Shown: positions 4,696-28,674 of the stretch, piece after piece
Numbering within the stretch: the stretch's first letter is position 1
How the letters are laid out: every line of letters begins with the position of its first letter
Assembly (NCBI GenBank): GCA_035275385.1
Contig: DATEMW010000076.1
Location: 1-40,273 of the forward strand
DNA length: 40,273 bases
Reading direction: 5' to 3'
Origin: Candidatus Methylomirabilota bacterium
Lineage (GTDB): Bacteria > Methylomirabilota > Methylomirabilia > Rokubacteriales > CSP1-6
Notes under the pieces: generated by a model
Seen by the model: the letters and a program-made list of their open reading frames with translations, nothing else
What the model was told of the DNA's origin: nothing
Database searches by the model: none
Program-made: the position numbers and the translations under genes

Positions 4696-5340
4696 TCAAA
4701 ACCCTCTGAGGAGTCCGATGACCTTGCCGAGAATCGTGACCGCGCGCCGGGCCGGATCGATGACGATCGGCGCCATCGTCTGGTTCTCGGGCTTGAGCAC
4801 GACGCGCGAGCCATCGCGCAAGAACCTCTTCACGGTCGCCTCGGTCTCCCCGCCTGCCTCTGACTCGACCATCGCCACGACGATGTCGTTCGGCTGAGCC
4901 GAGCTCTGGCGCCTGACGAGCACGAGGTCGCCATCGCAGATGTGCGCCTCGATCATCGACTCGCCGCGCACGCGCAGCGCGAACACGTCCTCGCCGCGGC
5001 CGGGCAAGGACGCCGCGGCGATCGGCACGTCGCCCTCGCGGTTTTCCTGAGCCAGGAGCGGCGAGCCCGCGGCGATCCGGCCCAAGATCGGCACGGCGTG
5101 ATGCGCGCGCGACGCGCCGCCCACGTCGGGCAAACTGAGCGCCCGCGACGTGCGGCCCTCGCTCGGGCGCCGCTGCAGCTCGCCCTTGCGCTCCAGTGCG
5201 CGCAGATGATCGAACGCGGCCCGCGGCGTGATGCGGAACCGCCCGCCGATCTCGCGCACGGTCGGCGGCACCCCGTGCTTGGCCTGGAAGCTGCGCATGA
5301 AGCTCAGAACTTCGCGCTGTCGGCCCGTCAGCTCTCGCAT
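4696..5340 (-). CDS. lexA: LexA repressor (SOS regulator, S24 peptidase)
   Basis: The N-terminus is a winged HTH: MRELTGRQREVLSFMRSFQAKHGVPPTVREIG. The Ala-Gly cleavage site is in RIAAGSP, the catalytic Ser in VRGESM and the catalytic Lys in TVKRF. GGAGG lies 7 nt upstream of ATG 5340. The track ORF start at 5394 would place the promoter and palindrome inside the gene. Confidence 0.92.
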   Translation of the reverse strand: MRELTGRQREVLSFMRSFQAKHGVPPTVREIGGRFRITPRAAFDHLRALERKGELQRRPSEGRTSRALSLPDVGGASRAHHAVPILGRIAAGSPLLAQENREGDVPIAAASLPGRGEDVFALRVRGESMIEAHICDGDLVLVRRQSSAQPNDIVVAMVESEAGGETEATVKRFLRDGSRVVLKPENQTMAPIVIDPARRAVTILGKVIGLLRGF

Positions 5341-5361
5341 CCGTCGTCCTCCGTGCCGCGC

Positions 5362-5393
5362 AGTATCACTCAACTGGTGTTGACTAGTCAACA
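5362..5393 (-). promoter_or_regulatory. lexA promoter with overlapping palindromic operator (candidate SOS box)
   Basis: On the minus strand, TTGACT (5391-5386) is followed by an 18-nt spacer and GATACT (5367-5362). A perfect 16-bp palindrome TGTTGACTAGTCAACA (5378-5393) covers the -35. A further TCAAC-N4-GTTGA inverted repeat lies at 5370-5383. Confidence 0.5.
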
Positions 5394-5443
5394 AAAAGCG
5401 AGTGCCTGGTTTTCGGGACAGGAACGGGCTCAGAGAAGGCGGG

Positions 5444-5905
5444 CTACGCGGGCTCCCAGGGCTCGCAGACCGGGCAGGTCGTCAACCCCTGCTCGCGAGC
5501 CTCGGCGACGTGCTTGAAGTACGCGCGCTCGGCCTCGGGAATCCGCGCGACCCAGGCGCAGTCGCTCTTGTGGAACAGGCGCGAGGAGCGCTGAGCGCAA
5601 TAGGGCTCCCCCGGCTCGACTGCGACGGTGGGCGCGGAGTCGACCGCGGGGCTGGCGACGGGCGTCTCCGATGGCGCGGTCGCGATCGGCGGCTCGATGA
5701 TCGGCGTCGACGACGGGATGATCGGATCGGGATCGTTGATGTGGAGATTCGTCTCGACGGTCGATCGGAACTCGTCGCTGGCGCGACGGAACTCGCGGAG
5801 CGCGCGACCGATCATCCTGCCGAGCTCGGGGAGCTTTCCCGGCCCGAAGACCAGCAGGGCCAGCACCCCGATGACGAGCATCTCCTGAAATCCGATGTCG
5901 AACAT
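5444..5905 (-). CDS. TatA/TatB-family Sec-independent translocase component with C-terminal Cys4 Ada-like zinc module (153 aa)
   Basis: [42 protein letters not shown] is a canonical Tat TM helix, hinge and amphipathic helix. A Pro-rich linker follows. The tail is [48 protein letters not shown]. Confidence 0.8.
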
Positions 5906-9284: not shown

Positions 9285-10617
9285 TTTTCACCCGCTTGAT
9301 CGGCAGCCGGATCGTGAACGTCGCGCCGAGCGGGGCGCGGTTGTCCCAGGTGACGGTGCCCTCATGCTCCTCGGCGATCTGCCTGGTGATCGAAAGGCCG
9401 AGCCCGGTCCCCTGCGGCTTCGTCGTGAAGAACTGCTCGAAGAGCCGCGGCATGACCTCCGCGGGAATGCCGCCGCCGGTGTCGGAGACGGCGATCTCCA
9501 CGGCCTCGCCGTCGAAGCGGCTCCCGATCGTGAGCTCGCCGCCGCTCGACAGGGTCTCGAGCCCGTTCTTGACGAGGTTCAGCACCGCCTGGCGCAAAAG
9601 CCCGCGATCGATCTCCATCATCGGCACGTTGGGGTCGAGCTCGACCCGCAAGGTGAGCCCCTGGCGCGTCGCGACCGGCCGCACGAAATCCGCGAGCTCC
9701 TGCACGAGATGGTTGATCGACTCTTCGTCGAAGTGCGGCTTCGGGAATCGCGCGAACGCCAGATATTCCTCGGTCAGCGCGTCGAGCGTGGTGACCTGGT
9801 CGCGAATCGCCGCCACGAGGCCCGCCGCCTCCTTCATGTCGTCGCCGTCGCTGCGCTCGCGCACGATGTCCTCGAGCATCTCGGCGTTGAGCTCGATGGC
9901 GCTGATGGGATTGCGCACCTCGTGCGCGATCCGGAGCGAGAGGCGTCCCACCGTGGCCATCCGCTCGGCGACCACCAGCTCTTGCTGCGCGGTCTGCAGC
10001 CGGCTCAAGGTGCCCGTGAGCTCGACGTTCAGCCGCTCGACCTCGCCCCGGGCGCGCCGCTCGCGGTCCGCGACCAGCCCCAAGGTCACCGCGGGCAAGC
10101 CGGCCAGCGCCACGAGAATCAGGTGCGGCGTCCAGCCGACCCACGGGGGCACCAGCACCGTCGACCACGCGTAGAGCCCGCCCGCCACCACCGCCGCGCC
10201 GAGTCCGACCCAGGGCCCGAAGTAGTACGCGTTCACGGCGACCAGCGGAAAGAACAACAGATAGAAGACGCTGTCACCGGCGCCGGTGAGGCACAGCAGG
10301 ACGAACACCAGCGAGAGATCGATCGCGAGAGCCCCGATGAAGTAGGCGCGCGTGGCGCGCGGGTTGACCGTGACCAGCGCGAAGATGCCCACCTTGTAGG
10401 CCGCGAAACAAAAGACCAGCCAGTAGAGATCGATGTCGCGATAGCGGGGCCGCAGCGGGAAGAACCCGAGCGCGACGAGTCCGCCGACCATCACGACGGC
10501 CAGCAGCACCGCGAAAACGCGCTCGTCTCGCTCCAGCAGCCGAAAGCTGGCGTGCCACGGCTTGCGCTCGGCGGTGATGGCCATCTCCACGCCGACTATA
10601 GCATTGCGGCCAATCAC
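9277..10617 (-). CDS. Membrane-embedded sensor histidine kinase
   Basis: The N-terminus has about six hydrophobic helices and no obvious periplasmic domain. The H-box is RIAHEVRNPISAI. The HATPase N/G boxes are LVKNGLE, DTGGGI and GTGLGLSI. It overlaps the downstream regulator gene by 8 nt and dedA by 4 nt. Confidence 0.88.
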
Positions 10618-12838: not shown

Positions 12839-13198
12839 GTGAGCCCGACGCTCTCGATCGACCTCCAGTCGTTCAAGGCGGAGTTCTTCAAGGCGCTGGC
12901 CCACCCCGTCCGCATCCGGATCCTCGAGGTCCTACGGGCCGGCGAGCATAGCGTGCAGGAGCTGCAGGCCCGGCTCGACCTCGATCAGTCGACGGTCTCC
13001 CAGCAGCTGGCGGTACTTCGTACCAAGAACATCGTGACCGCCCGCAAGGAAGGCACGACCGTCCGGTACGAGATCCGCGATCCACTGGTCGGCGACCTTC
13101 TCGACGTGGCCCGTCGCATCTTCAACAATCAGCTGGCCGGCTCCCAGACGATGCTGCGAGCGCTCCGTCAGGAAACGCGCCGGCCGGCGAAGCGCTGA
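12839..13198 (+). CDS. ArsR/SmtB-family transcriptional regulator (GTG start)
   Basis: FKALAHPVRIRILEVLRAGEHSVQELQARLDLDQSTVSQQLAVLR is the canonical ArsR winged HTH. It is the first gene of the operon below. Confidence 0.9.
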   Translation: MSPTLSIDLQSFKAEFFKALAHPVRIRILEVLRAGEHSVQELQARLDLDQSTVSQQLAVLRTKNIVTARKEGTTVRYEIRDPLVGDLLDVARRIFNNQLAGSQTMLRALRQETRRPAKR

Positions 13199-13200
13199 CC

Positions 13201-13710
13201 GTGCTGCGCCAGCTCCGCACCGCGTTCCGTACGGGCATCGTCACCGAACCGGTGCGGGCCTCCGCCGAGCTCGAGCGGGTCGGCGAGCGGCTCGCGACCG
13301 AAATCTCGCGGCTCTTCAGCCGCGCGCTCGCGATCCGTCAGGTCGATGCCGGCTCGTGCAACGGCTGCGAGCTCGAGATCGGTGGCCTCACAGGCCCGCA
13401 CTACGACCTCGAGCGATTCGGCGTGCACTTCGTGGCCTCGCCGCGCCACGCCGATTGCCTGCTGGTGACCGGTCCGGTGACCCGCAACATGGCCGAAGCG
13501 CTACGGCGCACGTGGTTGGCGACGCCGGATCCGAAGTTCGTCGTGGCGGTCGGCGACTGCGGGCGCGACGGGGGAATCTTCCGCAGCTCCTACGCGGTCG
13601 TGGGCGGCGTCGGCGAAGTGGTCCCGGTCGACGCGGTCATCCCCGGATGCCCGCCCTCGCCCGCAGCGCTCCTGGCCGGCCTTCTCGAGGCGATAGGCCG
13701 CCGTCGATGA
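13201..13710 (+). CDS. NuoB/HycG-type small subunit (4Fe-4S) of a group-4-hydrogenase/complex-I-like module
   Basis: Four cluster cysteines are retained: GSCNGCELE (two), GDCGRDGG and IPGCPPSP. The start is GTG, 2 nt after the ArsR stop. Confidence 0.9.
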   Translation: MLRQLRTAFRTGIVTEPVRASAELERVGERLATEISRLFSRALAIRQVDAGSCNGCELEIGGLTGPHYDLERFGVHFVASPRHADCLLVTGPVTRNMAEALRRTWLATPDPKFVVAVGDCGRDGGIFRSSYAVVGGVGEVVPVDAVIPGCPPSPAALLAGLLEAIGRRR

Positions 13711-15617
13711 CCCGACTGGTCTACGGGCTCGTCACGCTCATGGGCGTGGTGGTCGGCGTCGCGGGCGCGTACGGCGCCGCGGGCGGCGCCGGCACCTTGC
13801 GAATAGGCTGGCTCGTGCCGCTCGGCGGTCTTGAGCTGACGCTCGATCCCCTCGCCGGGTTCTTCCTCGCGCTGATCGGCTTCGCGGCCGTGCCGGCGTC
13901 GATCTACGCCATCGGCTCCTCGGACGGCGACGGGCGGGGCCGCTTCGCATACGCCGCGTTCGTGGCGTCGATGTGCGTCGTCCCGCTCGCCGGGAACGTG
14001 ATGACCTTCGTGCTCGCCTGGGAGCTCATGTCGCTGGCGTCATACTTCCTGGTGCTCCGCGACCCCGACTCGCGAGAATCGGTACGCGCCGGCTGGATCT
14101 ACCTCGTCATGACCCACGCCGGGCTCGCCTGTCTGCTCGGAGGCATGCTGCTGCTCGGTGCCGACATCGGCAGCCTCAGGTTCGCAGATTGGCGGGCGGC
14201 GGCGCCGACGCTGACCCCCACGACCCGGAACGTGGCCTTCGTGCTGATGGCCCTCGGCTTCGCCGGCAAGGCCGGCGTGATACCGCTGCACATCTGGCTG
14301 CCGCTCGCGCATCCGGCGGCGCCGAGCCACGTCTCGGCGCTGATGTCCGGCGTCATGATCAAGCTGGGCGTCTACGGGCTCATGCGCGTGAGCCTCGACT
14401 GGCTTGGATCGGGTGCGCCGTGGTGGGGCGTCGCCCTCCTGATCGCCGGCGCTGCGTCCTCGGTGATCGGCGTGCTCTACGCGCTGGTCGAGCACGACCT
14501 CAAGCGCCTGCTCGCGTTCCACAGCATCGAGAACATAGGGATCATCCTGCTCGGCCTCGGCAGCGCTGTGTCGTATCGAGTCGCCGGCCTCGAGGCGCTC
14601 GCGCTCCTCGGGTTGATCGCGGCGCTCTATCACACGGTCAACCATGCCGCATTCAAGGCGCTACTGTTCCTGGGCGCGGGCGCCGTCGTCCACGCGACCG
14701 GCACGCGAAACATGGAGGCGATGGGCGGGCTCATCAAGCGGATGCCGTGGACCGCCGCCTGCTTCCTGATCGGCTCCGCGGCGATCGCGGCCTTGCCGCC
14801 TCTCAACGGCTTCGTGAGTGAATGGCTGACGTTCCTGGCCATGTTTCAGAACGCGAGCCTCGGCGCGGTCGGGCAGAGCCTGGTCTTCACGCTCGGCATC
14901 GCGAGCCTCGCGCTGACCGGTGGTCTCGCGATGGCGTGCTTCGTGAAAGCCTTTGGTATCACGTTCCTCGCTCTTCCCCGGAGCGACGCCGCTGCCCACG
15001 CCGACGAGGCGAGCCCGACCGTGCGCGTGGCGATGCTCGCGCTGGCCGCCGCCTGCATCGGCCTCGGCGTGGCTTCGACGCTGGTCGTTCCGGCGTTCGA
15101 GCACGTGGCGGCGTCGGTCCTGCGAACCGCGCCCCGAGCGACAGCGGGCCACTGGCTCACCCTGCGCGTGTCGGGCGATTTTGCCAGCCTGTCGACCGCG
15201 GCGATCGCCGTCGCCCTGGCCGCGGCGCTCCTCGGCTCGCTCGCGATACTGCGGCTCGTGGGCGCCTCGCACCGCACACGCAGCGACGAGACGTGGGGCT
15301 GCGGCCGGATATTACAGACCGCGCGAATGGAATACACGGCGACCGCATTCGCCAATCCCTTCAAGCGGGTCTTCGATTTCTTCTACCGGCCCACGACGCG
15401 CCTGGACATCGAGTCCCATCCCGAGTCGCGGTTCTTCGTCCAGCGCATCGAATACGAGAGCCCGACGCGCTCCATCTTCGAAGATTGGCTCTATCGGCCC
15501 TCGCTCGACCTTCTCGTCAGGGGCGCGCGCGTCGTCGGCACGCTGCAGTCGGGCAGCACGAATCAGTATCTGGCATACATCCTGGCCGCGCTCCTGCTCC
15601 TGTTGGTCCTCGCGTGA
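13707..15617 (+). CDS. HyfB/HycC/NuoL-like antiporter-type membrane subunit (636 aa)
   Basis: A proton-antiporter (NuoL/M/N, Mrp) fold is indicated by WELMSLASYFLV, GKAGVIPLHIWLPLAHPAAPSHVSALMSGVMIKLGVYG and AFHSIENIG. An ATGA overlap with the upstream stop sets the start at 13707, rather than the upstream extension to 13356. Confidence 0.88.
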   Translation: MTRLVYGLVTLMGVVVGVAGAYGAAGGAGTLRIGWLVPLGGLELTLDPLAGFFLALIGFAAVPASIYAIGSSDGDGRGRFAYAAFVASMCVVPLAGNVMTFVLAWELMSLASYFLVLRDPDSRESVRAGWIYLVMTHAGLACLLGGMLLLGADIGSLRFADWRAAAPTLTPTTRNVAFVLMALGFAGKAGVIPLHIWLPLAHPAAPSHVSALMSGVMIKLGVYGLMRVSLDWLGSGAPWWGVALLIAGAASSVIGVLYALVEHDLKRLLAFHSIENIGIILLGLGSAVSYRVAGLEALALLGLIAALYHTVNHAAFKALLFLGAGAVVHATGTRNMEAMGGLIKRMPWTAACFLIGSAAIAALPPLNGFVSEWLTFLAMFQNASLGAVGQSLVFTLGIASLALTGGLAMACFVKAFGITFLALPRSDAAAHADEASPTVRVAMLALAAACIGLGVASTLVVPAFEHVAASVLRTAPRATAGHWLTLRVSGDFASLSTAAIAVALAAALLGSLAILRLVGASHRTRSDETWGCGRILQTARMEYTATAFANPFKRVFDFFYRPTTRLDIESHPESRFFVQRIEYESPTRSIFEDWLYRPSLDLLVRGARVVGTLQSGSTNQYLAYILAALLLLLVLA

Positions 15618-16558
15618 TGGCCGACGTCGCCGCCGCGCTCCTGCAACTCCTGATCGTCGCCGCCGGCGCCCCGTTGATCGTCGGCGCGCTCCGCACCCTG
15701 AAGGCACGGCTGGTCGGCCGTCGTGGCCCGAGCCCATGGCAGCCCTACGCCGAGCTGCGCAAGCTGATCTCCAAGGAAGCGGTCGTCTCCACGACGACCT
15801 CATGGGTGTTTCGTGCCACTCCGTACGTCCTGGTCGCGACCTTGCTGGTTGCGGCGATGATCGTCCCGATCGCAGTCGCACGGCCGCCGCTGGCGTTCGC
15901 CGGCAACATCATCTTGCTCGTCTACCTCTTCATGCTCGGCACGTTCTTCCTGGCGCTGGCGGGCCTGGACGCGGGCAGCGCCTTCGGCGGCATGGGCTCG
16001 AGCCGCGAGGTAGCCGTCGCCGCGCTCGCCGAGCCGACGATCATCGTTGCGGTGTTTGCACTCGCACTGCGTGCCGGCACGATCGATCTCGGCCGCATCG
16101 CGGAGCGGTTCGGCGCTGAGCCCTGGCTGGCGGCCAATCCCGCGCACCTGCTGGCATTCGCCGCCTTCTTCATCGTCATGCTGGCCGAGACGGGGCGGCT
16201 TCCCGTCGACAACCCGGCGACTCACCTGGAGCTGACGATGATCCACGAGGCGATGGTGCTCGAGTACTCGGGTCGATACCTGGCGCTGATCGAATGGGCA
16301 GCGGCGATGAAGCTTTTCCTATTCATGGCGCTCCTGGCGAACCTCTTCTTTCCCTGGGGTTTGAGCGCTCCGACCGGCCTCGTTCCGATCGCCGTGAGCC
16401 TTCTCAGCTTGACCCTGAAGCTCGGAGTGCTGACGGTGGCCGTTGCGGTGCTCGAGGTCGCGGTGGCGAAGCTCAGACTATTCCGCGTTCCCGAGCTGCT
16501 CGCCGGCTCGTTCGCGCTGGCCCTGTTGTCGCTTATGGCGGTATTCGTCGTCCGATGA
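15617..16558 (+). CDS. HycD/HyfC/NuoH-like membrane subunit
   Basis: VGRRGPSPWQPYAELRKLISKE is a NuoH/HycD hallmark. AETGRLPVDNPATHLELTMIHEAMVLEYSG is conserved. The start overlaps the upstream stop (TGATG). Confidence 0.88.
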   Translation: MADVAAALLQLLIVAAGAPLIVGALRTLKARLVGRRGPSPWQPYAELRKLISKEAVVSTTTSWVFRATPYVLVATLLVAAMIVPIAVARPPLAFAGNIILLVYLFMLGTFFLALAGLDAGSAFGGMGSSREVAVAALAEPTIIVAVFALALRAGTIDLGRIAERFGAEPWLAANPAHLLAFAAFFIVMLAETGRLPVDNPATHLELTMIHEAMVLEYSGRYLALIEWAAAMKLFLFMALLANLFFPWGLSAPTGLVPIAVSLLSLTLKLGVLTVAVAVLEVAVAKLRLFRVPELLAGSFALALLSLMAVFVVR

Positions 16559-17196
16559 CGACCGCATCGAACCTCCTGACATTCCTCTGCCTGGCGATCA
16601 CCTTGCTCATCGTGTGGCGACGGAGCTGGCCGGCGCGTTTGAGGCTCTTCGCCGCCCAATCGCTGCTGCTCGCAATCCTGGCGGGCACGATCGGCGTTCT
16701 CGCGCAGCGACGCGGGCTGTTCCTGGTAGCCGCGGTCGTCGTGGTCGTCAAGGTCTGGGCGATCCCCCGCGTGCTCGCACGCATCGGCTCCGGCGCACCG
16801 GTCCGACCGATCGCACCCGGTCGATCCTCGGGAATCGCGCTCCTGGTCGCCGGAGCTCTCGTCGTCGCGGCATACGTCGTCATGCTTCCGGTCACCGCGG
16901 CAGCGGAGCTGCCGACCGGCGGCGCCATCCCGCTCGCGTTCGCGATGGCCCTGATCGGCCTCGCCCTGTGCGTCACGGGCCGCGACGCGCTGAGCCACAT
17001 CCTGGGCTTCCTCGTCTTCGAGAACGGGATCTTCGGCCTCGCGATCCTGGCCACCTATGGGCTGCCGGGTATCGTCGAGGCCGGCGTCTTCCTCGACGTG
17101 CTGGTCATCGTCCTCATCATGGAAGCCGTGGTCGTGCAGGTGCGCCGCGAGCACGCCTCGATCGATGTCGATCGCCTCCGAGAGCTCCGCGGATGA
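16555..17196 (+). CDS. HyfE/HycP-like (NuoK-related) membrane subunit
   Basis: It is a 213-aa polytopic protein in the position and of the size of hydrogenase-4 component E / Rv0085. The start overlaps the upstream stop (ATGA). Confidence 0.8.
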   Translation: MTTASNLLTFLCLAITLLIVWRRSWPARLRLFAAQSLLLAILAGTIGVLAQRRGLFLVAAVVVVVKVWAIPRVLARIGSGAPVRPIAPGRSSGIALLVAGALVVAAYVVMLPVTAAAELPTGGAIPLAFAMALIGLALCVTGRDALSHILGFLVFENGIFGLAILATYGLPGIVEAGVFLDVLVIVLIMEAVVVQVRREHASIDVDRLRELRG

Positions 17197-18626
17197 TGTT
17201 GCTGGCCGTCCTGGCAATTCCGCTGGTCGGCGCCGCTCTGCTCTGGCGAGCAACCAATCGCCTGGCGACGACGCTGCACGCGGTGACGGCGGCCTCGACG
17301 CTCGCGGCCGGGCTCGCGGTGGCCGTCATGGTCAACGCGGGCGAGACACTGGTGGCGTTCGACGGGCTGCTCCGTGCCGACGCGCTGTCGGCGTGGATGA
17401 TCGCCCTCATCGGCATCGTCGGCGGGCTCGCCGCCTCGGAGGCGCCACGCTACGTCGTGCCGGGCGAGCCGCGTCGCTTCTATCCGCTCTTCCACTTGTT
17501 CGTGTTCACGATGCTGCTCGCGGTCTCTACCGACGACGTCGGCCTCATGTGGGTCGCCGTCGAAGGCACGACGCTCGCGTCGGTCTTCCTGGTCAACTTC
17601 GAGCGCACGCGCGCCTCGCTCGAGGCGTCGTACAAGTACCTCTTGATCTGCTCGGTAGGTATCGCGATCGCATTCCTCGGCACCGTGCTCGTGTACTTCG
17701 CGGGCATCCAGCAGTTCGGCGACGAGACGCACGCGCTCCGGTACACGACCTTGCTGCGGCTGGCCCCCGGGCTCTCGCCGCGCGTCATCGAGCTCGCCTT
17801 CGTCTTCCTCGTCGTCGGCTACGGGACGAAGGCCGGACTGGCGCCGATGCACACGTGGCTGCCGGACGCTCACAGCGAGGCGCCGGCACCGGTGAGCGCG
17901 CTCATGTCGGGCGTCCTGCTGAGCGTCGGGGTGTACGCGATCGCGCGCTTCAAGCCCGCCGTCGACGCGGCAGCTGGGCCCACATTCGCGCGCGGGATCA
18001 TGCTGACGCTCGGCCTGCTGTCGATCGCGGTGGCGTCCGCGTTTCTGTGGACGTCGCCCAACTACAAGCGCGCGCTCGCGTACTCGAGCGTCGAGCACAT
18101 CGGGCTGGTGTGCCTCGGGCTCGGATTCGGCGGGCCGGTCGCTACCGCCGGCGCCCTCCTGCACGTTGCGAACCACGCACTCGCCAAGTCGGCCGGCTTT
18201 CTGATGTCGGGGCGCATCCGCGCCGCATACGGCTCGGCCGAGATCGGCTCGGTGCGCGGCGTCATGAAGCACATGCCTCGGACGGGAGCGGCGTTCCTGA
18301 CCTCGATCCTGGCACTCGTGGGCCTGCCTCCCTTCGGGCTCTTCGTCAGCGAGGTGATGATCTTTGCCGCGGGCTTCAAGCAAGGGTTCCCGCTCGTGGC
18401 GGGCATCGCGCTCCTGCTGCTCGTGATCGCCTTCGCGGGGCTGCTCCGCGGCGTTCACCACATCCTCTACGGGGCTCCCGCCGGCGAGCCCGTGGCCGAG
18501 GTGGCCGGCTGGCCCTCGGTGGTGCCGGTCGCCGCGGCGCTCGGCGTGCTGCTCCTCACCGGGCTGGCGTGGCCGCCGGGATTCGGCGAAGCCCTCGACC
18601 GCCTTGCCGCGATCGTGAGTCCCTGA
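17193..18626 (+). CDS. HyfF/HycQ/NuoN-like antiporter-type membrane subunit (477 aa)
   Basis: GLMWVAVEGTTLASVFLV, GYGTKAGLAPMHTWLPDAHSEAPAPVSALMSGVLL and AYSSVEHIG are present. The start overlaps the upstream stop (ATGA). Confidence 0.88.
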   Translation: MMLLAVLAIPLVGAALLWRATNRLATTLHAVTAASTLAAGLAVAVMVNAGETLVAFDGLLRADALSAWMIALIGIVGGLAASEAPRYVVPGEPRRFYPLFHLFVFTMLLAVSTDDVGLMWVAVEGTTLASVFLVNFERTRASLEASYKYLLICSVGIAIAFLGTVLVYFAGIQQFGDETHALRYTTLLRLAPGLSPRVIELAFVFLVVGYGTKAGLAPMHTWLPDAHSEAPAPVSALMSGVLLSVGVYAIARFKPAVDAAAGPTFARGIMLTLGLLSIAVASAFLWTSPNYKRALAYSSVEHIGLVCLGLGFGGPVATAGALLHVANHALAKSAGFLMSGRIRAAYGSAEIGSVRGVMKHMPRTGAAFLTSILALVGLPPFGLFVSEVMIFAAGFKQGFPLVAGIALLLLVIAFAGLLRGVHHILYGAPAGEPVAEVAGWPSVVPVAAALGVLLLTGLAWPPGFGEALDRLAAIVSP

Positions 18627-20213
18627 ATGCCGGTGACGATCTCGCTCGACACCCTGCGCAAGGCCGTCGTCGCCGCCGGGGCCACGGGCGTCGGCGCGCC
18701 GCACGACGGCTCGATCCAGTGCCGGCTACCGGCCTGGGAAGTGCCCGCGCTCGCTGATCGTCTGGCGGCAGTCGGCGCGCGCTGCCAGTTCATGGCCGCC
18801 GCCGACACGCGCACGGCAGCCAGCGGCGACTTCACCCTCGCTTACGTTTTCGCCCCACCGCAGCTCGCGCCGTCGGTCAGCGTGCTGGCGGCCGTTCCGG
18901 CCGGGACGGCCCGCTTCGCCTCGCTCGCGACGCGTTCGTTCGCGGCGAGCCGCTTCGAGCGGGAGATCCACGACCTGTTCGGTCTGGTTCCAGAGGGCCA
19001 TCCGGACTTGCGCCGGCTCGCGCTGCACCAGTACTGGCCAGAGGGGTATCACCCGCTCCGCCGCGACGTCGCGCCCCGGACGGATTTCGTCGACACCGGC
19101 GAGCCGTTTCCGTTCCGGCGGGTCGACGGCGAGGGCATCTTCGAGATCACCGTGGGGCCGGTTCACGCCGGAATCATCGAGCCCGGCCATTTTCGCTTCA
19201 GCGTCGAAGGCGAGACGATCGTGAATCTCGAGACACGCCTGGGCTTCGTTCACAAGGGGACGGAACGGCTGCTGGCAGAGTCAGCCCTCGAGCGTGGACC
19301 AGAGCTCGCCGAGCGGGTCTCGGGCGACACGACCGTCGGCCACGTCATGGCCTTCTGTCAGGCGCTCGAGGCCCTCGCCGGCTGCGTAGTGCCGCCCCGC
19401 GCGCGCCTGCTTCGGCTCGTCCTGCTCGAGCTCGAGCGGATCTACAACCACGTCGGTGACGTGGGCATGATCGTGAACGACACCGGATTCGCCTTCGGGC
19501 ACGCGCACTGCTTCCGAATTCGCGAAGAGCTGCTGCGGCTCAACGAACGGCTCACCGGCCACCGTCTGATGCGCGGAGCGGTGGTGCCGGGCGGAGTGGC
19601 GGGCCCGATCGCTGCCGTGCCGCTGCTCGAGGCTGCGACGGCCGCCGGCAATCTGGTCGCGGAGTTCGCCGCGGTCACGCGGGTCTGCCTGGACAACACG
19701 CTGGTCCTCGAACGGCTCCAGGGGACCGGTCGTCTGACCGCGCGGACTGCGGAGGAGATGCAAGTGGTCGGGCTCGTCGGACGTGCGAGCGGGATCGATG
19801 CCGATGTCCGCCGCGACGCGCCCTTCGCCGCCTACGACGGCGCCCACGTGCGCGTGGCGGTGTACGGAGCGGGCGACGTGTGGGCGCGGACGATGGTGCG
19901 CCTGGACGAAGCGCGCGAGGCGGCGCGCCTCATCGGCGAGGCCGCCCGCCGCGACACGAGCGGACCCGTGCGAGCCTCGCTGCCGCCCTTCAAGGCCGGC
20001 GCGCACGCCTTCGGGCTCGTCGAAGCGTGGCGCGGGCCCGTGTGGCACTGGGTGCTCGCTGACGGCCCCAAGTCGCTCAGTCGCGTGAAGATCGTCGACC
20101 CGTCCTTTCGTAACTGGCCGGCGCTCGAATACGCGGTACTCAACAACATCGTTCCGGATTTTCCCCTCTGTAACAAGTCCTTCAACCTCTCGTACTCGGG
20201 GAACGATCTCTAG
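18627..20213 (+). CDS. HycE/HyfG-like large subunit (NuoC-NuoD fusion) lacking the paired [NiFe] cysteine motifs
   Basis: The NuoC-like part contains RFEREIHDLFGLVPEGHPDLRRL. The NuoD / NiFe-large-subunit part contains ITVGPVHAGIIEPGHFRF and LGFVHKGTERL. The position of the RxCGxCxxxH motif reads ERVSGDTTVGH (19311-19343). The position of the C-terminal DPCxxCxxR motif reads NLSYSGNDL (20184-20210), followed directly by the stop. Confidence 0.9.
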   Translation: MPVTISLDTLRKAVVAAGATGVGAPHDGSIQCRLPAWEVPALADRLAAVGARCQFMAAADTRTAASGDFTLAYVFAPPQLAPSVSVLAAVPAGTARFASLATRSFAASRFEREIHDLFGLVPEGHPDLRRLALHQYWPEGYHPLRRDVAPRTDFVDTGEPFPFRRVDGEGIFEITVGPVHAGIIEPGHFRFSVEGETIVNLETRLGFVHKGTERLLAESALERGPELAERVSGDTTVGHVMAFCQALEALAGCVVPPRARLLRLVLLELERIYNHVGDVGMIVNDTGFAFGHAHCFRIREELLRLNERLTGHRLMRGAVVPGGVAGPIAAVPLLEAATAAGNLVAEFAAVTRVCLDNTLVLERLQGTGRLTARTAEEMQVVGLVGRASGIDADVRRDAPFAAYDGAHVRVAVYGAGDVWARTMVRLDEAREAARLIGEAARRDTSGPVRASLPPFKAGAHAFGLVEAWRGPVWHWVLADGPKSLSRVKIVDPSFRNWPALEYAVLNNIVPDFPLCNKSFNLSYSGNDL

Positions 20214-20812
20214 ACGACCCTGCCGCCGCCGACCGACCGCGCCGAGAAGCGGCGCATGTCGGCCTTCTCGGAGCGGCCTTCCGCTTCGATCACGAAGCCC
20301 GCCGCCTCGACCGCCCGCTCGGTGTCCCGGTTGGGGTGACAGCCGCCGCTGACCCACGTCCACACCGGCTCCACGCGATCTTGAAATATCGCCTTCCACC
20401 GTCGCCGCGAGCGTACGTGCTCCAGCATCCGTAGCCGGCCATCGCGCCGCAGCACGCGCTTGACCTCGGCGAGGCCCCGCGCGGGCTCCCGCACGGTGCA
20501 GAAGACCAGGCTCGAGACCACGGTGTCGAAGGCGTCGTCGCGGAAGGGCAGCGCCTCGGCGCTTCCCTGCACCAGCGGCACGGTCGGCGCGCGGCGCCGG
20601 GCACGCGCGAGCGAGTCCCAGGCCGGATCGAGACCGATCGGACGAACGTCACGGGAATAGAGCGCGAGCCCGCGTCCGGTGCCGCAGCCGACGTCGAGCG
20701 TTCGGCCGCGCGCGCCGGCGGCGAGCCAGCGCCGCCAGGCGTCGAGGCCCGTACGCTCGAGCACCGCGCAGAGCCCGTCGTAGAGCCACGGGATCTGCTC
20801 GACCCCGCGCAC
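20210..20812 (-). CDS. Class I SAM-dependent methyltransferase
   Basis: Motif I is LDVGCGTGRGL. LVFCTV and GRLRMLEHV follow. The GTG start directly abuts the FIST stop (TGAGTG). Confidence 0.85.
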   Translation of the reverse strand: MRGVEQIPWLYDGLCAVLERTGLDAWRRWLAAGARGRTLDVGCGTGRGLALYSRDVRPIGLDPAWDSLARARRRAPTVPLVQGSAEALPFRDDAFDTVVSSLVFCTVREPARGLAEVKRVLRRDGRLRMLEHVRSRRRWKAIFQDRVEPVWTWVSGGCHPNRDTERAVEAAGFVIEAEGRSEKADMRRFSARSVGGGRVV

Positions 20813-21976
20813 TCAGGCCTCGGGAAAGACGACGAGCGCGCCCGTGTAGTTGTGGAAGAAGTTGCGGCGGCCGATCGGCGCGAACTCGCCGTTGCCGAAG
20901 AACCCGACCAGCGGGAATTCGCCGAGCTTCTCGCGGATCAAGGTCACGTCGTGATCGGCGACGCCGAAGAGCCCGCGGCCGCGTCCGGCGCAATCGAAGT
21001 AGCAGCCGAACGCCGGCCGCCGCCCGGCGAGCCGCCCCGCGAGCTCGTCGAGCATCTCGATCAGGTCGTCGCGCGAGGCCTGCGCATCGCGGATCTGGAA
21101 CTGCAGGGTCTGTCCAATCCGCACGCGCTCGGCGACGGCCAGGGCGCCGCTCGCCTGATCAGCGCCGACCAGATTGCGCACGAGGAAGTCGCCGCGCTCG
21201 AGGGGCGACTTGGCCGGATCCATCGCGAGCCCGGCGAAGACGCCAGCGTGTCGAATACGCGACTCGGTGTCGGGGTTCGCGCGGATCGCCTGGGTGAGCA
21301 CCTCCAGCGCCGGCCGGCTCGCGATCCGCTGGATCACGTTGGCGTCGGCGTGCGTGATCACGTACGGCTCGCCGATCGGCGTGCAGCCCTGCGTGACGCC
21401 GATCAGCGGCGAGAGCCCGGAGAGCGCGACGCCGACCAGCGCGCCTTCGGTCGCGTCGGTGTTATAGAGCTCGAACATCGGCGAGCCCGCCGCGACCGCG
21501 CCGAGCACGGGCACGAAGCCGAGCGCTTCACCGAGCTCGTTCAGGAGCGCCGGCGGGTTGCAGCCGATGGCGTCGGGCAGCACGAGCACGCAGCCGCCTT
21601 CCGCGACGGTCGGCCCGATCTGCTGGCCGAGCTCAGCGCCGAGCTGGGGCCGCTCGCCCTGGCGCTCGAACGAAAACGGCGTGGCGACGAGACGCTCGCA
21701 GCGGACCGCGAGCACCGCGACGGCCAGATCCTCTTCCACTTCGCGGCGCTCGGTCAGGATCCCGGTGCCGCTGCAGCCGATGACGACCGGCGCTCCGGTG
21801 ACGCGCCGGACCGCGTGCAGCGCCTCGTGAGCGCGCGCCCGGGCGTCGCCAGTGGTGAAGACGAGGGCGAGGTCGGCGCGATCGGCGCCGCTCCGCTCGA
21901 GGGCCTGTAGCGATGCCTCGAGCGCGGCGTTGTCGGCGGTGCCGCCCACGGCGAGACCGGTTCCCGCGGCGATCAT
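20813..21976 (-). CDS. Stand-alone FIST (FIST_N + FIST_C) sensory-domain protein
   Basis: It has a FIST-like layout: LALVFTTGD...VIGCSGTGIL in the N-terminal half and FPLVGFFGNGEFAP...HNYTGALVVF at the C-terminus. Confidence 0.82.
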   Translation of the reverse strand: MIAAGTGLAVGGTADNAALEASLQALERSGADRADLALVFTTGDARARAHEALHAVRRVTGAPVVIGCSGTGILTERREVEEDLAVAVLAVRCERLVATPFSFERQGERPQLGAELGQQIGPTVAEGGCVLVLPDAIGCNPPALLNELGEALGFVPVLGAVAAGSPMFELYNTDATEGALVGVALSGLSPLIGVTQGCTPIGEPYVITHADANVIQRIASRPALEVLTQAIRANPDTESRIRHAGVFAGLAMDPAKSPLERGDFLVRNLVGADQASGALAVAERVRIGQTLQFQIRDAQASRDDLIEMLDELAGRLAGRRPAFGCYFDCAGRGRGLFGVADHDVTLIREKLGEFPLVGFFGNGEFAPIGRRNFFHNYTGALVVFPEA

Positions 21977-28067: not shown

Positions 28068-28164
28068 TCGATTCGCTGATCGGGTCGCCGCACAAGAGTA
28101 TCCTAGCTGGACGGACTCAGCTCACTGCTGTCAACGTGCCGCGACTGAAAGAGGGAGATGTGTC

Positions 28165-28674
28165 ATGGCCGACGACTTCGAATACGTCTCGCACGCGCGC
28201 CTCGAATACCGCGACGGCTATCGCAACGCCTATCTCGGCGAAGTGCCGGAACCCGTCGTGTACGGCGTCCAGGGCGCCCTGCGCCAGTACTACGGCGCCG
28301 CGGAAGGACCGCCGGTCGCATCGACGCTCGATCACATCGTCGCGGCGGTCGCGGGCTGAATGTACGGCACGCTGCGTGGCGCCCTGGCAGGGCGCAAGAT
28401 CGCGTACGATCGTGATTCGTTCAAGGCCGCGGTCGACGGCCGGATCTCCGGCATCGGCAAGACGATCCGGATCAAATCGATTCACGTTCACTATGACGTT
28501 GCGGTGCCGCCCGAGGCGCGCGAGGCGACCGAGCGTGCGCTCCAGGTTCACCTGCAGGGCTGCCCCGCGCATCAGAGCGTGAAGGACGCCATCACCATCA
28601 CGTGGGACGCCGCCCTTCGACTCGGTGACCAGACCATCATGCTGCGAGGCGGACCAGACGAGGCGGCGCAGTAG
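28165..28674 (+). CDS. OsmC-family peroxiredoxin with in-frame TGA at the peroxidatic Cys position (candidate selenoprotein, or a pseudogene)
   Basis: Track ORFs 28165-28359 and 28360-28674 are in the same frame and are separated only by TGA 28357-28359. The joined product STLDHIVAAVAG[TGA]MYGTLRGAL aligns with E. coli OsmC NPEELIGAAHAACFSMALSLML. The second conserved Cys, VHLQGCPAHQSV, aligns with KAGCPVSQV. GAGGGAG lies upstream of ATG 28165. Confidence 0.6.
28362..28407 (+). promoter_or_regulatory. SECIS-like stem-loop downstream of the in-frame UGA
   Basis: The upper stem GCGCCC (28379-28384) pairs with GGGCGC (28390-28395) around the apical loop UGGCA. The lower stem GUACG (28362-28366) pairs with CGUAC (28403-28407). 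The apical loop lies about 28-32 nt 3' of the UGA. Confidence 0.35.

Follow-up and report, generated by a model that had tools for sequence, protein, structure and literature searches.

A predicted OsmC-like selenoprotein of Rokubacteria and Ktedonobacteria, with a conserved in-frame TGA and a SECIS-type hairpin

The stretch of DNA considered here, referred to as the window, comprises the 40,273 nucleotides of contig DATEMW010000076.1 (GenBank assembly GCA_035275385.1) from a Candidatus Methylomirabilota bacterium of the Rokubacteriales, and its subject is an OsmC-like gene on the forward strand that is interrupted by a TGA triplet. Two open reading frames (ORFs) in the same frame, 28165-28359 (64 aa) and 28360-28674 (104 aa), are broken solely by the TGA at 28357-28359, and the frame closes with a TAG stop at 28672-28674. 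A Shine-Dalgarno (SD)-like AGAGGGAG, read from the sequence, lies at 28150-28157 (+), 7 nt 5' of the ATG at 28165. Read through the TGA, 28165-28674 (+) forms what translation, Pfam, AlphaFold2/Foldseek and orthologues indicate to be a complete gene of 169 codons for an OsmC-fold selenoprotein, in which the TGA would specify selenocysteine (Sec, U) at codon 65 within the motif A-G-U-M-Y-G-T; the protein around this codon reads HIVAAVAG-U-MYGTLAGALSGR. A 7-bp hairpin resembling a bacterial selenocysteine insertion sequence (bSECIS), GCGCCCU-GGC-AGGGCGC, follows at 28379-28395 (+), and a TGC at 28561-28563 (+) encodes Cys133 (QGCPAH), the putative resolving cysteine. The first-pass annotation of this DNA had described two same-frame ORFs of 64 and 104 aa parted by the TGA only, with a good SD sequence before the first, and had expected automated annotation to split the gene; the ORFs and the SD-like sequence are present as described, and the public gene calls do give the gene as two pieces of 64 aa and 104 aa.

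The joined protein, with Cys put for the TGA, scores 42.1 bits with the Pfam OsmC family (PF02566), for which the cutoff is 27.5. A Cys-type relative (73% identity) was modelled with AlphaFold2 (mean predicted local distance difference test score 71). The model has its secondary-structure elements in the order typical for OsmC and places position 65 inside a predicted helix, 54-76, which makes it unlikely that the two halves are separate proteins. The top Foldseek matches to this model are exclusively OsmC/Ohr structures (1qwi, 1nye, 1ukk, and 2onf), with a probability of 1.0 and template modelling (TM) scores of 0.5-0.6. A sequence search of the Protein Data Bank (PDB) with the single protein returned no direct match, but a search with the family profile did align to OsmC structures. 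In that alignment, the TGA/Cys column coincides with Cys59 of E. coli OsmC (AAHAACFSMAL, 1qwi) and with the equivalent Cys of Thermus OsmC (1ukk), while Cys133 (GCPAH) coincides with the Cys of the OsmC GCPV motif, that is, Cys125 of E. coli OsmC. The protein is thus a member of the OsmC/Ohr superfamily by its Pfam score above the gathering threshold, its predicted OsmC fold, and its two catalytic positions. The initial placement of the TGA at the first catalytic Cys, which had relied on a comparison with E. coli AAHAACFSMAL, agrees with the profile alignment, and the second, resolving Cys that had been called intact is the aligned Cys133, invariant in homologues.

The conservation of the TGA was assessed in two overlapping sets of loci, consisting of 24 full-length loci in species-representative genomes and the best 80 of 182 loci from a family-alignment search; in the two sets together, the 54 nt from the TGA onward occur as 75 distinct sequences. 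The TGA is present at codon 65 in 24/24 and 80/80 loci, and the same TGA at the same codon in all of them is far beyond chance. At least 182 species-level genomes contain relatives, and, judged by record title, the 80 loci divide into about 45 from Rokubacteria/Methylomirabilota, about 25 from Ktedonobacteria and other Chloroflexota, and about 10 from other or unlabelled bins. One host is a cultured isolate, Ktedonobacteria bacterium brp13, whose complete genome (AP024096.1) contains two TGA-containing copies. These copies, at about 7.644 and 7.665 Mb (L080/L081 and L155/L156), are near-identical and lie about 20 kb apart, and one of them adjoins an insertion sequence (IS)-type transposase (L081 597-1314), an arrangement that suggests recent duplication or mobilisation.

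Both sides of the TGA are under coding constraint. The ratio of nonsynonymous to synonymous variation (pN/pS) is 0.20 for the 64 codons 5' of the TGA and 0.35 for the part 3' of it, indicating purifying selection on both halves. The first-pass annotation had raised the possibility that relatives carry the same split with degenerated flanks; the TGA proved universal and the flanks are not degenerate. A protein search found 2423 relatives. Of the best 120, nearly all begin at Met66 and have a length of about 104 aa, so that gene callers evidently cut them at the same place. Some proteins carry W at position 65 (P0001, P0004, and P0153), and these were called under an alternative genetic code in which a second TGA is also read through. 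In contrast to such a reassignment, the OsmC-like gene itself terminates with TGA in 9/24 loci, and TGA also closes many genes of the window, indicating that it is a normal stop in the carrier genomes.

Two sets of records depart from this regularity in other ways. In a protein from a long-read metagenome contig (P0030, L033 10001-10399), the Sec codon is CGA (Arg), the C-terminus is frameshifted, and the N-terminus is lost, with the hairpin intact; it represents either a recent pseudogene or long-read errors. Furthermore, high-GC copies of the Rokubacteria type with an identical hairpin occur in bins labelled as Nitrosotalea sp., an archaeon (L019/L052), Acidobacteria (L013/L034), Verrucomicrobiia (L058 and L100), Deferrimicrobiaceae (L042), and Limnocylindria (L015/L051). 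Such copies in metagenome-assembled genomes (MAGs) of unrelated taxa are probably mis-binned contigs, and they could also reflect horizontal transfer.

The hairpin at 28379-28395 consists of six G-C pairs and the pair U28385-A28389, which closes an apical loop G-G-C at 28386-28388. It starts 22 nt after the TGA and its apical loop begins 26 nt after it; read by the bSECIS convention N1-G-[G/U]-N-N2, 28385-28389 gives the motif UGGCA, which starts 25 nt 3' of the UGA. Its minimum free energy (MFE) is -12.0 to -13.4 kcal/mol. Published bSECIS criteria (PMC13188914) call for an apical loop of 3-9 nt, an upper stem of 4-16 bp, a G in the first two loop positions, a distance of 16-37 nt from the UGA, and an MFE of -7.5 kcal/mol or lower. 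The hairpin conforms to every one of these, with a loop of 3 nt (5 nt when U-A is counted as N1-N2), a stem of 6-7 bp, a spacing of 25-26 nt, an MFE within the limit, and G-G in Rokubacteria or G-U in Ktedonobacteria at the start of the loop. The same apical motif was not found after an in-frame TGA in other genes in 2.75 Mb of sequence.

The nucleotides of the hairpin are constrained beyond what the protein requires. Codons 72-77 (GGC GCC CTG GCA GGG CGC) have a codon entropy of about 0, whereas 68 other conserved codons with four- to six-fold degeneracy average 1.06 bits; GCA and GGG, fixed here, are minor codons in the rest of the OsmC-like gene. RNAalifold, applied to the 75 distinct sequences, returned the 7-bp hairpin as the sole consensus structure, and 99.6% of cells in the alignment are paired, compared with 29-59% when the partner columns are slid. 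At the degenerate third-codon positions of the stem, 16 of the 17 variants are C-to-U, which leaves a G-U pair in place, and, all stem positions considered, a pair is broken in only two sequences. In low-GC Ktedonobacteria the flanking codons vary freely and the hairpin is kept, its loop motif changing from U-GGC-A to U-GUC-A, and across the two phyla the hairpin remains almost base-for-base the same.

Homologues with Cys or Ser at the site of the TGA provide natural controls for this association. About 30 full-length cluster representatives with 30-52% identity have Cys at the TGA column, with the consensus AGCLxGTL, and Cys133 is invariant among them. The closest Cys form, P0002 (73% identity), has TGT at position 65, one base away from TGA, and its hairpin is intact, indicating that the switch between TGA and TGT was very recent. 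A Ser form found in three samples (P0003) has TCG at 65 and a decayed hairpin, including changes at the formerly frozen synonymous sites (GGT GTT CTG GCC GGG CGC), and two Cys-type homologues, P0121 (TGC) and P0129 (TGT), have none. The search for Cys-containing orthologues proposed in the first-pass annotation was therefore productive, with TGT or TGC confirmed in the DNA. As judged from these genes, the pattern of Sec and Cys homologues is a classic one, in which the hairpin tracks the TGA. Met66 occurs in the nearest Cys-type homologues as well (CMHGT, CMYGT).

Two further homologues of this kind were observed. The Ktedonobacteraceae MAG DATAYF01 encodes both P0129 (L269 2001-2498, with TGT and no hairpin) and a Sec-type gene (L092/L167). 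A third, low-GC lineage, represented by P0153 (L271 211-669, 41% identity), has TGA at the catalytic position (GG-TGA-LTGTF), followed at the same distance by a different 4-bp hairpin (GACC/GGUC, loop CUUGA) whose first two loop positions contain no G; this lineage might represent a Sec form that is older or arose independently.

The machinery for Sec insertion is encoded in the lineage. It was sought in about 1.05 Mb, made up of the 80 loci and their 10-kb flanks, with E. coli SelA, SelB, and SelD queries that served homology detection only. The first 465 kb of short flanks of related loci contained no sel genes or tRNA-Sec. In a Rokubacteria MAG with a 401-kb contig (CAVZOE010000005.1, L150), 8.3 kb separate an OsmC-like orthologue (10001-10480) from a tRNA-Sec(UCA) at 18747-18844, which was detected by ARAGORN and by Rfam RF01852 (69.7 bits against a threshold of 47, E = 2e-13). 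The start of selA, containing LRPVINATGVVLHTNLGRA, is located at the edge of the same locus, about 10.2 kb downstream of the orthologue. Two other Rokubacteria MAGs, among the matches listed for a SelA-fragment query (L188 and L189), carry tRNA-Sec(UCA) followed by selA and selB (8.5-13.3 kb); the OsmC-like gene was not seen in these two loci, and in L150 its distance from selA slightly exceeds the length of the 10-kb flanks. Rokubacteria can thus have a compact tRNA-Sec(UCA)-selA-selB cluster. Sec-type hydrogenases and a predicted selenoproteome of 63 members have been reported in Methylomirabilota, and a literature search returned nothing specific on Sec in Rokubacteria or Ktedonobacteria.

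Taken at gene level, 28165-28674 is best described as a single functional gene for a 169-residue OsmC-fold protein of the thiol/selenol peroxidase type, the activity being a predicted one, and the TGA at codon 65 is very probably read as Sec. The initial proposal of a candidate selenoprotein is in this way strengthened by the universal TGA, the SECIS-type hairpin, the Cys homologues, the Sec machinery of the lineage, and the literature on the family. In the mechanism envisaged, the hairpin at 28379-28395 would recruit SelB-GTP carrying Sec-tRNA(Sec), with anticodon UCA, to a ribosome positioned at the UGA, and Sec would be inserted at codon 65 in competition with release factor 2. Sec65, in the long helix, would then act as the peroxidatic residue and Cys133 (GCPAH) as the resolving residue, presumably forming a selenenylsulfide that a thiol donor would reduce.

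Several observations weigh against the reading of the TGA as Sec. The window itself contains no sel genes among its about 33 Pfam-annotated ORFs and no tRNA-Sec (no tRNA of any kind was detected, and no Rfam family reached the gathering score), and no Sec genes lie within 10 kb of either brp13 copy. The search for Sec machinery suggested in the first-pass annotation consequently gave a divided answer, with tRNA-Sec and selA linked to an orthologue in the lineage and nothing in the 40 kb at hand. Furthermore, none of the Rokubacteria loci inspected (L150, L188, and L189) showed a selD gene. With respect to the hairpin, Rfam SECIS models gave no meaningful match at the site, so that the suggested check for a SECIS element after the TGA succeeded as to the published criteria and the synonymous constraint, but not as to a Rfam model. 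Folding of the 64-nt region is unremarkable against shuffles in this GC-rich context (z = -0.88) and is not used as evidence here. Lastly, no compensatory double substitutions occur among the 75 distinct sequences, which is attributable to the stem being too conserved; the support for the hairpin therefore comes from conservation and wobble-only changes, and not from covariation.

The alternatives to Sec insertion have to account for the same set of observations. A lone sequence with an in-frame stop resembles the outcome of a nonsense mutation, here from TGC or TGT to TGA in an OsmC gene, and the lack of Sec machinery within the window, together with the degraded appearance of one relative with CGA and frameshifts on a long-read contig (P0030), would be in keeping with a pseudogene. 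The TGA is, however, invariant in both sets of loci and in two phyla, both halves are under purifying selection and free of frameshifts or extra stops, and a selected RNA hairpin lies downstream. Nor can these be copies of one contaminant, given 75 distinct sequences in unrelated genomic contexts. The conservation data thus effectively exclude a pseudogene. A split gene is likewise highly improbable. It would involve termination at the UGA and re-initiation at the adjacent AUG, yielding chains of 64 and 104 aa that assemble without the catalytic residue 65, and its appeal is that an ATG directly follows the TGA in 105/105 cases, a classic arrangement for coupling, and that gene callers take this ATG as a start. 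The presence of Met66 in the nearest Cys-type homologues nevertheless indicates that the ATG is older than the TGA, and Ktedonobacteria have no conserved SD sequence before it (GTT GCT GGC TGA ATG). Such a break would also fall in the middle of the predicted helix and remove the peroxidatic residue although the resolving Cys is invariant, and it leaves both the SECIS-type hairpin and its loss in Cys and Ser forms unexplained.

The UGA could also be decoded as something other than Sec, through reassignment to Trp or Gly, near-cognate read-through, or insertion of Cys by a SelB-like factor working with an opal suppressor tRNA that accepts Cys. Some pipelines do give the codon as W, Cys is clearly tolerated at the site (P0002), and neither the window nor the 10 kb around the brp13 copies in Ktedonobacteria showed Sec genes, all of which would be in keeping with such recoding. 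Reassignment is nevertheless excluded by TGA serving as the terminal stop of this gene in part of the loci and of many window genes, and the W-containing proteins (P0001, P0004, and P0153) are artefacts of the alternative code. A canonical tRNA-Sec(UCA) and selA, whose product makes Sec-tRNA, are linked to an orthologue, selB is present in sister genomes, and the hairpin fits the SelB-type SECIS consensus, leaving non-Sec recoding improbable. For the Ktedonobacteria carriers in particular, a slight probability is assigned to decoding of the UGA and hairpin by a non-canonical route, such as a Cys-inserting SelB-like system; alternatively, canonical Sec insertion might operate there on a gene-plus-SECIS cassette acquired across phyla. 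If the latter is true, one and the same element would be recognised by SelB from both Methylomirabilota and Chloroflexota.

OsmC-like proteins entered the catalogue of selenoprotein families in 2005, when they were described in the Sargasso Sea analysis with the motif UxxT (COG1765/PF02566), in agreement with the first-pass annotation, which counted such proteins among the bacterial selenoprotein families found in metagenomes. The window protein shares with this Sargasso/Global Ocean Sampling (GOS) family the superfamily, the fold, and the position of Sec at the peroxidatic-Cys column. BLASTP with the Sargasso protein gives 25% identity, with Sec and the second Cys (QGC motif, about 70 residues on) in register, and in both the bSECIS lies within the coding sequence just 3' of the UGA. 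The two groups differ in several respects. The motif of the window clade is U-M-[Y/F]-G-T, compared with UxxT, and the clade has its own N-terminal region of about 50 residues (FEYxSxxRLxYxxG...EPVxYGxxG), which was found only there. It occurs in Rokubacteria and Ktedonobacteria of soil and groundwater, whereas the Sargasso/GOS family is from marine plankton, and Sec is nearly fixed in the window clade as sampled but rare among many Cys forms in the marine family. Correspondingly, the NCBIfam model NF041052 (OsmC_like_Se, "OsmC-related (seleno)protein", cutoff 95 bits) scores the window protein at 19.7 bits and the Sargasso OsmC-like selenoprotein, taken from the supplement of the Sargasso Sea paper as the positive control, at 157.4 bits. 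The window protein is also below the cutoff of TIGR03562 for E. coli-type OsmC (16.1 against 85.8 bits). On these comparisons, it is placed in a separate clade of the same superfamily as the known OsmC-like selenoproteins and would work like them.

Among characterized proteins, the OsmC of E. coli and Thermus thermophilus (1qwi, 1nye, and 1ukk) and Ohr are the closest in structure, and the superposition of Sec65 and Cys133 on Cys59 and Cys125 of the E. coli protein implies the same two-residue peroxidatic/resolving chemistry. Sequence identity to these OsmC proteins is only about 18-20%, and the window protein differs from them in having Sec in place of Cys and a different N-terminal segment. 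The arrangement of the gene corresponds to canonical bacterial Sec decoding, as known for selC-selA-selB and E. coli fdhF, in that an intragenic stem-loop, whose small apical loop contains G-[G/U], follows the UGA at the standard distance, and tRNA-Sec(UCA), SelA, and SelB are encoded in the lineage. The sequence of the hairpin is unrelated to the fdhF SECIS, and its binding by SelB is a prediction.

Nearly wherever it occurs, the OsmC-like gene is annotated in split or truncated form, and the curated model for OsmC selenoproteins does not recognise the window protein. It would thus represent a widespread, mis-annotated selenoprotein of abundant soil and groundwater lineages, which will not surprise a specialist and leaves the understanding of Sec decoding and OsmC chemistry unchanged. 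The near-identical SECIS in two phyla should be useful for studying SelB-SECIS recognition and the horizontal transfer of selenoprotein genes, and for benchmarking selenoprotein finders, and the cultured Ktedonobacteria host makes the Sec prediction directly testable.

In the window, the gene is surrounded by genes for a metallo-β-lactamase (MBL)-fold hydrolase, an amidase, a zinc-dependent alcohol dehydrogenase (ADH), a PanE-like reductase, and an aminotransferase. The first-pass annotation had seen an intact operon with the downstream ADH gene, a view not upheld elsewhere: no neighbour is common to more than 6 of 25 loci, and neither the ADH nor another neighbour is conserved beside the gene in any other genome. 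The OsmC-like gene is therefore a stand-alone unit, to which the ADH gene is incidentally adjacent. A scan for other TGA-interrupted frames, based on GC content at third codon positions (GC3), returned only antisense-frame artefacts and ordinary adjacent genes.

Elsewhere in the window, 13038-20210 (+) contains two Mrp/NuoL-type antiporter-like genes (13038-15614 and 16434-18623), followed by a fused NuoC/NuoD-like gene (18627-20210). The C-terminus of the latter, DFPLCNKSFNLSYSGNDL, lacks the Ni-binding CxxC motif, so that the region is a module related to group-4 hydrogenases in which no NiFe site is obvious. The NuoC/D-like gene was considered as a second, group-4-hydrogenase-like selenoprotein and rejected, as it lacks a Ni-binding Cys/Sec motif and its stop codon is TAG. 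Two same-frame junctions, a TGA-ATG between the antiporter-like and NuoCD-like genes at 18624-18629 (+) and a TGA-GTG between FIST and methyltransferase genes at 20810-20815 (-), have unrelated Pfam domains on either side and therefore look like ordinary adjacent genes and not like recoding. At the start of the window, a LexA repressor gene (4699-5481, -) lies near genes for an ATP-dependent DNA ligase (946-2562, -) and a KaiC-like ATPase (47-1030, -), a group that may constitute a DNA-damage-related cluster.

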